DNA of 64,000 nucleotides. Source: Oscillospiraceae bacterium (GTDB lineage: Bacteria > Bacillota > Clostridia > Oscillospirales > CAG-272). Location: positions 35,303 to 99,302 of the forward strand of contig SVQZ01000003.1 of the NCBI GenBank assembly GCA_015065105.1, in the 5' to 3' direction. The notes under the pieces are model-generated. The model ran no database searches. It worked only from the letters and a program-made list of their open reading frames with translations, and was not told the DNA's origin. A program made the position numbers and the translations under genes. Below are positions 52,665-57,967 of this stretch, piece after piece (the stretch's first letter is position 1; the number at the start of each line of letters is the position of its first letter).

Positions 52665-55055
52665 ATGAGAAAGTTATTATCTTTGATCCTTATCATTGCT
52701 ACGCTTCTTTCTGTATGCGTAGTGACATCCTCGGCAAAGGACATTGGAGATAATATTACCTGGACCCTTAACAAGGGAGTTTTAAGTATATCCGGAAACG
52801 GAAATATGGCGGACTTTTCCTCCCCTGAGGAGTATCCTTGGCATTCAAGCCGTTCGAGTATTACAAGTGTTGTAATAGGGCAGGGTATCAGCTCGGTATC
52901 GAGTTATGCTTTTTCGGGCTGCAGAGCGTTGTTTAACGTATTGATACCGTCCTCGGTTGAAATCATCGGTGCTCACGCCTTTGAGAACTGTCCTTCTGTT
53001 AAGGAGCTTACAGTTCCTGCCTCTGTTACCGAGATAGGAGAATACGCTTTTTATAACTGTACAGCCCTTAGAGATCTTTATATTAATGCAAAGGTAACGA
53101 CTCTTTCAGAATATTCTTTTGCCAATTGTAAAAGTGTGAATATTCTCAGTCTGCCCAATTCCCTTGAAACTATCGGCGATCATGCCTTAGAGGGTTGCTC
53201 GGGACTCTTCCAACTCAACCTTAACAGCTCTCTTAAAGAAATAGGAGAGAATGCTTTTTATGACTGCAAGGCGCTTGCCGATATAAAGCTTCCTTCGTCG
53301 GTCGATAGAATAGGCGCAGATGCCTTTGTTAATACCGCATACTATAATAATTCGGAAAATTGGAATGATAACGGGCTTTATATCGATTCCAAGCTTGTAT
53401 CGGTAAAAAATGACGTGAGCGGGGAATATACTGTAATTGACTCGACCTCCTATATTGCCGGTAAGGTCTTTGCAAAGGCTTCGTTTGATTTTGTTATGAT
53501 TCCTGTTACGGTAACAAATATTGAAGCGGATGCCTTTGAAGGCTCCAAAGCCGTGATACGTTGCTATGAGGGCTCTTATGCCGAGAATTATGCAAAAACG
53601 AATAATATTCCTTGCGAAACGATATTCGTTCATCCCGAGCCTGTATTTGCTCCCGACGGATTAAGGATAAAGGTAAGCGGTCTTGACGGTGTTGCTGTTA
53701 TCCGTACTGCCTACGGTGAATATGAAACCGAATCGGATATCAAGAGAGCCGAGACTCACAGATCCTTTACCAAAAAGAACGTTTTAAAGGATGTGAATGA
53801 ATATTTCGTTCAGTACAGAATGGAGGGTAAGGTGACTCTTATCGTCAGATATGACGACGGATATACCGTTACCTATACCCATGATATAACGAAAAAATCT
53901 CCCAAGATGACAAAAAGGGGTTCGACCGTTACCTTCGGTTCTCTTGATGATTTTCTTGTTATCAGATATGCAAAGGGTGAATATTTCACATCTAACGCTC
54001 TGAAGAACTCACCCGAATGTATAAATATAAGCTGGAGATATCATAAGGAGGATTCTTTTACCGTAACCTTAGAGGACGGTACATATACCTTCTGCGTCCA
54101 GTATAAAGATGAAAGCTACAATTTCTATACAATAAATGTTGATTCAAACAAGCCCCGTATATTCTGTATCGGTGACAGCCTTACCATGGGTATCGAAACA
54201 GGTTGGGGAAATGTCGTTGAGGTGCCTTATCCCGAAAGACTTGAGGAATATACGGGATATACTACCTTTAATTACGGTGTCGGATCCGATATAACCGAGC
54301 AGATAGCAATGAGAATGGGATCTCTTCCCGTATATGCAAAGAATATTACCATTCCGGCAGACAGAACTCCCGTTGCCGTGACTCCGTACCTTGAGGACGG
54401 ATACAGAGCGCAGTCCTTCTGTTATAACGGCTTTGCCGGGGTAAATGATGTGGAGATAGCCGGTGTTAAGGGTAAGCTTACCGACGTCAACGGCAGCGTG
54501 GACGGCCATGATAATTCCAGAGTCTATTTTACAAGAAACGAGCCCGGTGAGGAGGTCATTATCACCTCTCCCGAAAGAATAATCACCCATGCCGCATCAA
54601 GCTTCAGAAAGGATGATATCCTTATTATCTGGGTCGGCTCAAACGATCTTAACGATGCAGAGGATACCTCCTATTTTGAATATCTCGTAGAAATGCAACA
54701 GCAGATGATCGATCTTGCGGGAACAGAAAAATTTCTTATTATCGGTTATACCGCGGATAACTATATAGGTATTGACACATATACACAGTGTGCCGATCAG
54801 TATAACGCTTTGATGAAGGAATACTGGGGCGAGCATTTTGTGGATCTGAAGGAATATATGGCAACCTATAAGGCTCTTGAGGATTTCGGTATAGAGCCTA
54901 CCACGGATGACCGTTACCGTCTTGCAAGAGGATGGATACCCAAGTCCTTCCTTGAAAGAGGCAGAAATACTATACACTTTAATCAGATCGGCTATGACTG
55001 TGTTGAATATCTTATAGAGCAGAGACTTTATGAATTGGAATATATAGCAAAATAA
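52665..55055 (+). CDS. Secreted protein: BspA-type LRRs, two 'AYGEY' modules, C-terminal SGNH/GDSL hydrolase
   Basis: Signal peptide and LRR_5 repeats. Cassette modules 3-4 (VIRTAYGEYETESDIKRA..., VIRYAKGEYFTSNALKNS..., GTYTFCVQYKDESYNFYTINVD). SGNH blocks are FCIGDSLTMG, WVGSNDL and TIHFNQIGYD. Confidence 0.88.
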   Translation: MRKLLSLILIIATLLSVCVVTSSAKDIGDNITWTLNKGVLSISGNGNMADFSSPEEYPWHSSRSSITSVVIGQGISSVSSYAFSGCRALFNVLIPSSVEIIGAHAFENCPSVKELTVPASVTEIGEYAFYNCTALRDLYINAKVTTLSEYSFANCKSVNILSLPNSLETIGDHALEGCSGLFQLNLNSSLKEIGENAFYDCKALADIKLPSSVDRIGADAFVNTAYYNNSENWNDNGLYIDSKLVSVKNDVSGEYTVIDSTSYIAGKVFAKASFDFVMIPVTVTNIEADAFEGSKAVIRCYEGSYAENYAKTNNIPCETIFVHPEPVFAPDGLRIKVSGLDGVAVIRTAYGEYETESDIKRAETHRSFTKKNVLKDVNEYFVQYRMEGKVTLIVRYDDGYTVTYTHDITKKSPKMTKRGSTVTFGSLDDFLVIRYAKGEYFTSNALKNSPECINISWRYHKEDSFTVTLEDGTYTFCVQYKDESYNFYTINVDSNKPRIFCIGDSLTMGIETGWGNVVEVPYPERLEEYTGYTTFNYGVGSDITEQIAMRMGSLPVYAKNITIPADRTPVAVTPYLEDGYRAQSFCYNGFAGVNDVEIAGVKGKLTDVNGSVDGHDNSRVYFTRNEPGEEVIITSPERIITHAASSFRKDDILIIWVGSNDLNDAEDTSYFEYLVEMQQQMIDLAGTEKFLIIGYTADNYIGIDTYTQCADQYNALMKEYWGEHFVDLKEYMATYKALEDFGIEPTTDDRYRLARGWIPKSFLERGRNTIHFNQIGYDCVEYLIEQRLYELEYIAK

Positions 55056-57967: not shown

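Follow-up and report, generated by a model that had tools for sequence, protein, structure and literature searches.

A non-coding MITE between two copies of a whole hairpin shared by convergent genes, and its probable mobilisation by an IS1182-family transposase

Two convergent genes of an Oscillospiraceae bacterium, located on a stretch of 64,000 nucleotides (the window, meaning the whole stretch of DNA that was analysed), each end inside a copy of the same palindrome. Two identical, presumed terminator hairpins about 300 bp apart raise the question of whether they reflect regulatory design or are the footprint of one mobile insertion, and, if the latter, how an element could enter a sequence that encodes the last codons of two genes and damage neither. 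They are the footprint. The plus-strand gene terminates with GCA AAA TAA within the left arm of the first palindrome copy, and the stop codon of the minus-strand gene lies within the right arm of the second (Table 1). The direct repeat AGCAAAATAAGAGGCAGAATGCCTCTTATTTTGCT is 100% identical between the two positions, where shuffles expect 0 matches, and folds into a 16-bp stem with a 3-nt loop at about -23 kcal/mol (z = -5.7 to -6.3; for the left copy -23.1 kcal/mol, z = -5.7). An earlier note, made from the letters alone, had described a perfect palindrome carrying both convergent stops and duplicated around an inverted second copy of an element seen near 14 kb. The duplication, the placement of the stops and the inverted copy are all borne out, with small shifts in the measurements: the palindrome is 35 bp rather than 34 bp long and its stem 16 bp rather than 15 bp, and the element, which does start at 55081, ends at 55353 and not at 55354.

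Table 1. Features at the two insertion sites of the window, with coordinates counted from its first letter.
Feature	Coordinates	Strand	Remark
LRR_5-repeat and SGNH/GDSL lipase-like protein, 796 aa	52665-55055	plus	Pfam
Left target copy, 35-bp palindrome, presumed bidirectional terminator	55046-55080		Holds TAA of the plus gene (55053-55055) and its last codons
MITE, 273 bp, non-coding	55081-55353	minus	Multi-copy family, structured body
Right terminal palindrome CAGCTTGTCGATAAgtTTATCGACAAGCTG	55081-55110	minus	Helix 9, one covarying pair
Inner inverted end-motif copy TTTTTCGAAGTCAG (element strand)	55111-55124	minus	Helix 1, pairs with left end
Long internal hairpin, helices 6-8	55135-55193	minus	Compensatory changes
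Internal 13-bp hairpin flanked by A-run and T-run	55200-55234	minus	Helix 5, 7 pairs with compensatory changes
Left terminal inverted repeat CAGACTGTCGAAAAAGTC	55336-55353	minus	18-nt identity with left ends of full-length IS1182-family elements
Right target copy, 35-bp palindrome	55354-55388		Holds stop of the minus gene (55379-55381, complement) and its last codons
MGH1-like glycoside hydrolase, 862 aa	55379-57967	minus	Stop inside right palindrome copy
Left 24-bp hairpin copy AAGGAGTTAAAAATTCACTCCTTT	14256-14279		Overlaps stop of Amidase_6 gene (14255-14257)
First MITE unit, 246 bp, without terminal palindrome	14280-14525	plus	Ends at inner inverted end copy
Second MITE unit, complete, 276 bp	14526-14801	plus	98% identical to first unit over 246 bp
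Right 24-bp hairpin copy AAGGAGTGAAAAATTCACTCCTTT	14802-14825		Followed by stop of convergent sigma-70-like gene (14828-14830)

The DNA between the two palindromes contains no open reading frame of at least 60 aa and is the reverse complement of the element at 14 kb, the first 33-34 nt being identical and the remainder collinear at 78-81% identity. Its first 34 nt (55320-55353) are nearly invariant across all aligned copies, and its terminal inverted repeats, which are imperfect over 15 bp (CAGACTGTCGAAAAA vs CAGCTTGTCGATAAA, 12/15 positions matching), are kept in 17/17 aligned copies. In the right terminal palindrome the left-end motif recurs, as a direct copy, in the inner arm, and the outer arm is the right terminal inverted repeat itself. 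In a single copy, the flank and the end motif together read as a 50-nt inverted repeat. The body is strongly structured (z = -9.1); judged by its flanking runs, the 13-bp internal hairpin looks like a terminator in both directions, and the apical part of the long internal hairpin holds an extra 110-160 nt in two relatives (L008 and L044). The site at 14 kb, previously taken for a single element, is a head-to-tail pair of units, bringing the units within the window to three; the duplicated flank of 24 bp described there is real, with one mismatch between its two copies. At the junction 14525/14526 the second unit stands in place of the terminal palindrome of the first.

The state of the locus before insertion is seen in a related genome (GCA_017547545.1; loci L065 and L066), in which the glycosidase orthologue (P0002) is 77% identical to the window protein and shares with it the upstream GntR and ABC-transporter genes as well as the convergent LRR/SGNH gene, whose product ends in ...YELGYIKK* as opposed to ...YELEYIAK* in the window. 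At this locus a lone hairpin, ACAAAATAAAAGAGGCCGCGTGCCTCTTTTATTTTA, directly links both stop codons and the insert is absent. This supports the earlier proposal that one palindrome would have served both genes, the ancestral hairpin carrying the stop codons of each. Another locus, L067, has its own, separate insertion of this MITE family, located after the next orthologue. Within the species itself, 46/46 contig records (23 per flanking gene, collected with the exact flanking proteins) either carry the insertion or break inside it, and none shows an empty or excised allele. Duplication of the whole hairpin has kept the two reading frames and the two presumed terminators intact and has spared both convergent genes, and the insertion is therefore probably close to neutral. 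The locus thus provides a natural example of a transposon that has landed on a presumed terminator encoding the last codons of two genes without damage to either.

The same behaviour is seen in a dispersed family. Its 27-nt end motif is present in 48 stretches from 7 ruminant-gut Clostridia/Oscillospiraceae MAGs, and every copy with at least 125 nt beyond the left end is a small element, the other copies measuring 272-276 bp apart from two that are longer (387 and 436 bp). Of 51 distinct left-end flanks, 45 have a perfect stem of at least 7 bp that ends 0-2 nt from the element, compared with 0.8% of 20,000 random positions judged by the same stem criterion. Matching flanks at 13 MITE insertions are 23-35 bp long and each is a different whole hairpin, so that the target is defined by structure and not by sequence. 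Together with eight full-length insertion sequences, which are described below, there are 21 matched-flank events of 17-40 bp, in which a whole stem-loop is always spanned. The earlier note had reasoned that the flanks are target DNA and that their length follows that of the hairpin; both inferences hold, the first because the flank sequence differs between all independent copies, the second for MITEs and full-length elements alike. A gene 3' end lies within 90 nt of 32/45 left ends and 10/15 right ends, and copies occur in both orientations with no bias relative to the neighbouring genes. In three copies (L001, L033 and L053) the hairpins on the two sides differ. Searches with 26-nt and 20-nt left-end patterns gave no match in metagenome_contigs, though motif-bearing JGI contigs exist; the 27-nt motif had no match in viral_contigs, and blastn with the MITE had none in plasmid and phage collections.

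The link to a transposase family comes from the element ends. A search of viral_contigs with a 17-nt end motif led to a 1.6-kb element (L071), five further matches looking like chance. Its left end, CAGACTGTCGAAAAAGTC, equals that of the MITE over 18/18 nt and adjoins a hairpin, and its 496-aa protein scores 407.7 bits on the NCBIfam model NF033551 (IS1182 family transposase; cut-off 270) and contains the Pfam domains DUF772 and DDE_Tnp_1_6. The left end of the MITE is likewise identical over 18/18 nt to that of L108, and agrees at 17/19 positions with the P0149 and P0240 elements and at 16/19 with ISEfa7. Related full-length copies have the ends CAG[ACT]CTGTCGAAAAAGTCC and ...TCGACAG[AG]CTG, and the end motif CAGACTGT[CA]GA[AC]AAAG is common to IS1182-family elements of Enterococcus (ISEfa7), Listeria and Exiguobacterium, in which the left end folds back on itself as the terminal palindrome of the MITE does. 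The IS1182 elements from gut Clostridia and Firmicutes plasmids (L071, L077-L103, L104, L107-L109) share the terminal motif CAG[ACT]CTGTCGAAAAAGTC with the MITE, adjoin hairpins at both ends and have whole-hairpin duplications of 17-40 bp, namely 40, 25, 29, about 27, 22, 29 and 17 bp, and 21 bp in a copy on a finished Listeria plasmid. The hairpins on the two sides differ in many full-length copies from short contigs, as well as in L106 on a finished plasmid. Unlike the MITE, these elements are about 1.6 kb long, encode a transposase of 490-500 aa and have unrelated subterminal sequence. What they have in common with it is limited to the 18 terminal nt at the left end and about 12-15 nt at the right, and none of them is its direct parent. 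No full-length element with the 34-nt conserved left end was found among them. An IS1182-type transposase was found neither in the 64-kb window nor at the 48 MITE loci, nor could one be placed in the same genomes. When all proteins of the MITE loci were compared with one another, no multi-copy transposase appeared, and two transposase homologues from NCBI, P0230 and P0194, come from assemblies other than the MITE-bearing MAGs. A parent in the same genome, if present, is expected to start with CAGACTGTCGAAAAAGTCGGTCGGACGTGTGAA, or at least with CAGACTGTCGAAAAAGTC. The IS1182-type transposase is thus a property of elements with these ends and not of the MITE, which is filed as an IS1182-associated MITE rather than as an IS1182-family insertion sequence because it is non-coding.

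We therefore read the insert at 55081-55353 as a non-autonomous MITE that is mobilised in trans by an IS1182-family DDE transposase, which targets palindromes and duplicates the whole hairpin, and put the probability of this reading at roughly 80%. Several observations weigh against it: no transposase of this type at the MITE loci, no direct parent among the full-length elements, unlike hairpins on the two sides of some copies, and the published deletion of the hairpin by IS1272, the best-studied member of the family. The transposase would ignore the target sequence and recognise a palindrome, which in practice means the intrinsic-terminator hairpin that follows a gene, most plausibly in its extruded, cruciform state. 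Each of the element's two 3'-OH ends would be joined to one of the strands, the two joints lying at opposite feet of the palindrome, a polarity that we infer, leaving the stem-loop of each strand as a single-stranded gap, and repair synthesis would then copy the stem-loop, with a full hairpin copy on both sides of the element as the outcome. The duplication would be as long as the hairpin (17-40 bp) because gap repair copies the whole stem-loop.

Direct repeats of the IS1182 family reportedly span 0-60 bp in the ISfinder family table. Two of its members from staphylococci, IS1272 and TnSha1, insert into terminator hairpins with no primary-sequence specificity (Furi 2016, PMC4923244), and palindromic targeting by IS1182-family members is stated in two papers, both citing Siguier 2015 (PMC4923244, PMC5678879). 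The MITE resembles them in that its target is a hairpin, usually the terminator of a gene, which is used in either orientation and chosen by structure instead of sequence, and in that the elements sharing its ends encode the same type of transposase (NF033551). Multiple ends are another common trait, since the tandem 25-bp left-end copy of IS1272L and the three inverted repeats of TnSha1 can be compared with the three end-like motifs of the MITE, and also with the tandem pair at 14280-14801. By contrast, IS1272 deletes the stem-loop, partly or entirely, in an irreversible “IR-replacing” mode with no target duplication (PMC4923244, PMC5678879), whereas here an intact copy of the stem-loop stands on either side of the element, which does not fit that mode and corresponds to the hypothetical “pathway b” of the cruciform model of Wan et al. 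(2017), where the stem-loop is duplicated in full when its 5' feet are attacked (PMC5678879, Discussion, Fig 13). The junction 14525/14526 is a possible exception, which unequal recombination explains equally well. Furthermore, IS1272 is autonomous, whereas the MITE is a 273-bp non-coding derivative whose hosts are uncultured ruminant-gut Clostridia. The family has two branches in this respect, one (IS1272) deleting the hairpin and one duplicating it, and the difference should lie in the foot of the cruciform that is attacked. Hairpin targeting and whole-hairpin duplication each have published precedents (IS1272, IS1630), but the searchable literature holds no mechanistic description of a structure-specific, hairpin-duplicating integrase, the published work on the IS1182 family concerning the hairpin-deleting mode only. 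For the question of how some DDE transposases pick targets by DNA structure, the 21 matched-flank events, the more than 7,000 related transposases gathered and the one empty site offer material.

Bacterial MITEs such as Correia, RUP, BOX and MITEAba12 are small, non-coding, structured, intergenic and multi-copy, have terminal inverted repeats and are mobilised in trans by the transposase of a cognate insertion sequence (PMC10969869). Their described duplications are short and fixed (2-9 bp), unlike the whole hairpin seen here, and a 2024 review makes no mention of a MITE with a whole terminator hairpin as its duplication (PMC10969869).

An extension of the transposon reading, which we consider less likely than not, combines two further proposals. 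The transposases of the IS1182 clade with these ends may be integrases of strict structure specificity, for which the signal is the four-way junction formed when a palindrome is extruded and which join DNA at the two feet irrespective of arm length (17-40 bp seen). The MITE body, for its part, may be a selected module that keeps an insertion at a shared terminator from doing harm, or one with a role as an RNA. If both were true, clade and body would define a “safe-harbour” strategy of insertion in which stop codons and terminators are preserved. The second proposal can be taken separately, as an addition to the transposon explanation in which the body persists as a structured RNA or terminator-insulator used by the host, and this we regard as improbable, though less so than the other alternatives. 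Compensatory changes are present in 17/68 predicted pairs, 97.9% of cells are paired compared with 37-48% when the partners are slid, G-U cells outnumber A-C cells (39 vs 16 on the left-to-right strand), the internal hairpin has an A-run on one side and a T-run on the other, and the insertion is counted as present in all 46 same-species records. However, the symmetry of the hairpins could be maintained at the DNA level by quasi-palindrome correction, and terminal or subterminal hairpins also occur in three other IS1182-family left ends (see also PMC5678879), so that the structures may serve transposition. Moreover, the body has no Rfam match at the gathering score, with only weak matches far below threshold in a permissive search, and no promoter signal above shuffled expectation, and with no orientation bias relative to the neighbouring genes and no Rfam family an RNA gene was set aside as the primary explanation.

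It is much less probable that the element is moved by an IS30-family transposase like that of IS1630, the classic example of an insertion sequence whose targets and duplications are terminator inverted repeats of variable length. IS1630 of Mycoplasma fermentans is said, in the description by Calcutt of 1999, to be autonomous, 1.4 kb long and bounded by 27-bp inverted repeats, and its duplications are reportedly symmetrical terminator repeats. Passages on this element in two papers give duplications of 19-26 bp, and of 16-26 bp in strain M64 (PMC2853133, PMC3317919), and the former overlap with the range of 17-40 bp found here. The likeness, however, is one of behaviour only, as IS1630 has an IS30 transposase and the MITE has IS1182-type ends, the ends of IS1630 itself standing outside the comparison. 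Mobilisation of this type would predict an IS30-family element with CAGACTGTCGAAAAAG ends, but all full-length elements with these ends encode an IS1182-type protein (Pfam DUF772 and DDE_Tnp_1_6, with no IS30 match in NCBIfam), and the end motif is the one common to the Enterococcus, Listeria and Exiguobacterium elements, so that this candidate was dropped.

Slightly less probable still is an insertion that needs no transposase, in which a replication or repair error, with stalling at a hairpin and a template switch, copies the dispersed repeat and then the hairpin again. Hairpins do stall replication, and in two copies (L008 and L026) the loop is inverted between the flank copies, as in template-switch products. 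This inversion counts against the IS1182 reading, because simple gap repair does not predict it. Against a template switch, however, the junctions lie at the conserved terminal inverted repeats with single-nucleotide precision in more than 50 copies, elements that encode a transposase have these ends too and show the same kind of duplication, and both orientations occur. Finally, the view that the flanking palindromes are parts of the element (long terminal repeats, or attachment sites of a site-specific recombinase) instead of duplicated target, to which the 50-nt inverted repeat formed by flank and end motif lends a first appearance, is refuted by a flank sequence that differs at every site and by an empty orthologous site with exactly one hairpin and no element. 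Nor does any recombinase gene accompany the element.

Several other identities were considered and rejected. Against a group IIC intron, which would insert behind a terminator and make no duplication, no Rfam match at the gathering score lies near the element and no intron family appeared in the permissive search; inverted-repeat ends and a duplication were found in place of intron features. A REP/REPIN sequence mobilised by a RAYT, which would have two inverted REP hairpins of fixed sequence, no target duplication and an associated HUH tyrosine transposase, does not fit either, since the flanking hairpins differ per site and are duplicated target DNA, and insertion of the IS200/IS605 type, at an integrase attachment site or by a Cas1-like integration is excluded by the inverted-repeat ends, the variable target flanks and the identity of the transposase.

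In ruminant-gut Clostridia the MITE also interrupts genome assembly: contig ends are the location of about half of the 48 stretches, and the element can create chimeric assembly joins, as in L001.

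At the 55-kb site, two direct copies of a 35-bp hairpin flank a miniature element without any ORF (MITE). Each copy folds with a 16-bp stem and a 3-nt loop (-23 kcal/mol, equalled by 0 shuffles), and the repeat is direct, since the GAA loop reads the same way round in both. The insert corresponds to the 14-kb element in reverse complement, with the initial 33-34 nt identical and the remainder collinear at 78-81% identity. The earlier note had recognized the inverted second copy and the palindrome on both sides, as well as the placement of the two convergent stop codons within its arms, all of which holds; only the dimensions needed adjustment, such that the element ends at 55353 and not at 55354, and the repeat comprises 35 bp rather than 34, with a stem of 16 bp rather than 15. 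As can be read directly from the sequence, the final codons, the stop codon and the hairpin of both genes are still the native ones.

Features of the window and their positions
Feature	Position	Strand	Size	Remark
Hairpin copies, 55-kb site	55046-55080; 55354-55388		35 bp	AGCAAAATAAGAGGCAGAATGCCTCTTATTTTGCT; 100% identical
MITE insert	55081-55353	minus	273 bp	separates the two hairpin copies
LRR/SGNH gene	52665-55055	plus		end (GCA AAA TAA) within left arm of first copy
Glycosidase gene	55379-57967	minus		stop (55379-55381) within right arm of second copy
Hairpin copies, 14-kb site	14256-14279; 14802-14825		24 bp	one mismatch between copies
MITE unit 1	14280-14525		246 bp	without terminal palindrome
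MITE unit 2	14526-14801			complete
Amidase_6 gene, stop	14255-14257
Sigma-70-like gene, stop	14828-14830
Match to MITE left end	18570-18585		16 nt	CAGACTGTCGAAAAAA
Overlapping ORFs	17512-18807; 18687-19832			different frames
Repeated coding segments	22879-29520; 41874-42727; 53682-54007		150-280 nt	several families, 60-82% identity
tmRNA gene	43289-43637	minus		tag peptide ANDNLVAQAA
tRNA-Met and tRNA-Glu	61028-61184			tRNA-Glu at 61110-61184
Tandem repeat	61167-61613		196 bp	2.3 repeats
Second repeat family	61614-61638		25 nt	TAGGAAATTGCTCTGTTTCGTGTGA...

The proposal that one palindrome served both genes before the insertion was confirmed by the orthologous-locus comparison set beforehand. 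In GCA_017547545.1, whose glycosidase (P0002, 77% identity) is the closest orthologue from outside the species, the glycosidase gene has GntR and ABC-transporter genes upstream and a convergent LRR/SGNH gene, as in the window, the LRR/SGNH product ends in ...YELGYIKK* (...YELEYIAK* in the window), and a single hairpin (ACAAAATAAAAGAGGCCGCGTGCCTCTTTTATTTTA), with no insert, is the sole sequence separating the two stop codons. At the locus of the next orthologue (L067, 74% identity), a member of the same family has inserted independently behind the stop, between diverged copies of another hairpin. The insertion looks fixed within the species of the window, as all 46 contig records examined with the exact flanking proteins (23 per gene) contain it or break within it. 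The matching flanks of 13 independent MITE insertions measure 23-35 bp, each being another sequence and each one whole stem-loop; flank length thus follows hairpin length, as had been suggested, and the flanks represent target DNA rather than a part of the element.

The 27-nt end motif was found in 48 stretches from seven uncultured ruminant-gut or faecal Clostridia/Oscillospiraceae MAGs, with about half of the matches at contig ends, as expected of a repeat. In nearly all copies the element end is adjoined by a GC-rich stem-loop that differs each time. A perfect stem of at least 7 bp, with its 3' foot 0-2 nt from the element, is present in 45 of 51 distinct left-end flanks, compared with only 0.8% of 20,000 random positions from the same loci, and of the six flanks without one, four hold a hairpin with a mismatch. 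Gene 3' ends are found at most 90 nt from 32/45 left ends and 10/15 right ends, and no preferred MITE orientation was seen (4 vs 3 in tandem-gene contexts), so that the targets look like intrinsic terminators, presumably active ones.

Complete copies span 272-276 bp and are bounded by imperfect 15-bp terminal inverted repeats (CAGACTGTCGAAAAA and CAGCTTGTCGATAAA); the initial 34 nt are almost invariant in all 17 aligned copies. Two longer copies of 387 and 436 bp (L008 4899-5285 and L044 1971-2406, among the contig loci compared with the window) have 110-160 nt of extra GC-rich, hairpin-forming sequence inserted apically in their long internal hairpin, and L044 has an additional insert close to the right end. 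One direct and one inverted copy of the end motif form a 30-bp palindrome at the right end, and a third, inverted copy immediately inside this palindrome pairs with the left end. The MITE body folds strongly (z = -9.1): 97.9% of cells in the predicted helices are paired, against 37-48% with partners slid by 1-3 columns, two-sided changes occur in 17 of 68 predicted pairs (2-6 in the slid controls), and the covariation score was reached by 0 shuffles. As modelled, the helices are conserved by compensation. One of them is a 13-bp hairpin with an A-run on one side and a T-run on the other; Rfam holds no family matching the MITE helices.

At the 14-kb site, the hairpin shared by the two convergent genes is indeed duplicated, but it bounds a tandem pair and not the single element described before. 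The two units are arranged head-to-tail, are 98% identical, and the first terminates exactly at the third, inverted motif copy. The 14525/14526 junction can be read either as an IS1272-type insertion, the second unit replacing the terminal palindrome of the first, or as unequal recombination between end motifs. A further match to the MITE left end (CAGACTGTCGAAAAAA) lies inside an ORF without an adjoining hairpin; the overlap of this ORF with the following one, some 120-240 nt downstream of the match, suggests a frameshifted membrane sensor gene.

As for the mobilizing transposase, IS1630 (IS30 family), the first lead, was set aside, since elements with these ends encode an IS1182-type protein. 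A scan of viral contigs with the 17-nt end motif identified L071, which shares its JGI sample with one sister contig of the window and carries a 1.6-kb element whose left end (CAGACTGTCGAAAAAGTC) equals that of the MITE over 18 nt and adjoins a hairpin, and whose right end reads ...TTTTTCTACGGTCTG. Its 496-aa product contains Pfam DUF772 and DDE_Tnp_1_6 domains and scores 407.7 bits (cut-off 270) with NCBIfam NF033551, the IS1182 family transposase; more than 7,000 homologues were found at E < 1e-60. At 29 loci around five of these, the elements have the ends CAG[ACT]CTGTCGAAAAAGTCC... and ...TCGACAG[AG]CTG, each adjoined by a hairpin. Where full-length elements have matching flanks, the duplications are whole hairpins throughout: 40 bp at L079-L086 except L084 (one site; contigs up to 84 kb), 25 bp at L084, 29 bp at L087 and L108, about 27 bp at L091, 22 bp at L095 and 17 bp at L109. 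For IS1182, the ISfinder family table is said to list direct repeats of 0-60 bp. On finished plasmids, a Listeria IS1182-family element has a 21-bp hairpin (AGACAGCCGCAATGGCTGTCT) on either side, and the left end of a Thermocaproicibacter (Oscillospiraceae) element adjoins a hairpin. Similar to the MITE terminal palindrome, the left ends of ISEfa7 and of the Listeria and Exiguobacterium elements (CAGACTGTAGACAAAG...) form fold-back structures. On the basis of shared ends and shared behaviour the MITE is assigned to the IS1182 family, an overall identification to which we give a probability of 0.82. A direct parent was not found, every sufficiently long copy among the 48 genome loci being the small element, and none of the transposase-bearing contigs was tied to a MITE-bearing genome.

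Duplications of 17-40 bp that always equal the palindrome are hard to reconcile with a transposase dimer acting with a fixed stagger on B-DNA. The target would rather be an extruded cruciform, whose feet are adjacent at the four-way junction irrespective of arm length. In the scheme proposed for the family, attack of the element 3'-OH at the 3' feet removes the stem-loops (Wan et al., PMC5678879, Discussion and Fig 13), the outcome observed for IS1272 and TnSha1 (Wan et al., PMC5678879; Furi et al., PMC4923244), while attack at the 5' feet would leave each stem-loop as a gap, repair of which would then duplicate the whole stem-loop (PMC5678879). By contrast to IS1272 and TnSha1, the MITE and the related full-length elements duplicate the target stem-loop, and probably take this second path of 5'-foot attack, gap repair and copying of the whole stem-loop. 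Judged from the end-products, the step at the cruciform feet is moderately probable.

Some copies deviate from this pattern. In L008 and L026 the loop is inverted between the two flank copies; since each flank is a palindrome, a later inversion within one copy is possible. Unlike hairpins on the two sides were seen in L001, L033, L053 and many full-length copies on short contigs, likely because copies have recombined or contigs were chimerically assembled across a repeat. A finished Exiguobacterium plasmid also has unlike hairpins, which leaves room for a second insertion mode that may underlie them. In the metagenome contig L001 (8417-8760) the window's LRR/SGNH gene is joined via the MITE to another hairpin (AGAGGATTTTCGCTGTATAAAGCGAAAATCCTCT) and to TrmO and further unrelated genes; either the assembly is chimeric here, or recombination has truly taken place across two MITE copies.

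Hairpin targeting has already been published for IS1272 and TnSha1 (PMC4923244, PMC5678879), a remark attributed to Siguier 2015 has some IS1182-family members target palindromes, and for IS1630, of another family, whole-terminator duplication of 19-26 bp is on record (PMC2853133, PMC3317919). The finding is well supported, yet not a new principle. In the searchable literature no description was found of whole-hairpin duplication within the IS1182 family, nor of a MITE duplicating a whole terminator, which is also absent from a 2024 MITE review (PMC10969869). Duplication versus deletion of the hairpin provides a useful contrast within one family.

Other repeats were observed as well. The 196-bp unit, which lacks the CAG...TGTCGA end motif, consists of 55 nt with the last 18 nt of tRNA-Glu and a terminator hairpin (three copies, 96-100% identity) and of 141 nt in which one stretch resembles a tRNA T-arm in reverse complement (GGGGGAATCGAACCC); the repeat could have arisen by tandem duplication or be left over from integrations at the 3' end of the tRNA. 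The second repeat family directly follows a terminator T-run in the window, L024 (630-654), L010 and L019, and its 25 nt are identical between the window and a contig of SIG691, a MITE-rich MAG. In L010, L019 and L024 it is fused to the MITE left half, just after the internal hairpin, and L010 contains four tandem copies of an 84-nt version. In L013 (236-570) the hairpin ATAGTGGTATTTTACCACTAT adjoining a MITE end occurs four times with spacers of 63-88 nt of unrelated sequence. Small fragments could have inserted repeatedly, each time duplicating the hairpin, or the spacers could be small genes in tandem with a common terminator. The repeated coding segments, which sit in genes for large surface proteins containing LRR_5 and SLH-type repeats, are ordinary domain repeats with no relation to the MITE.
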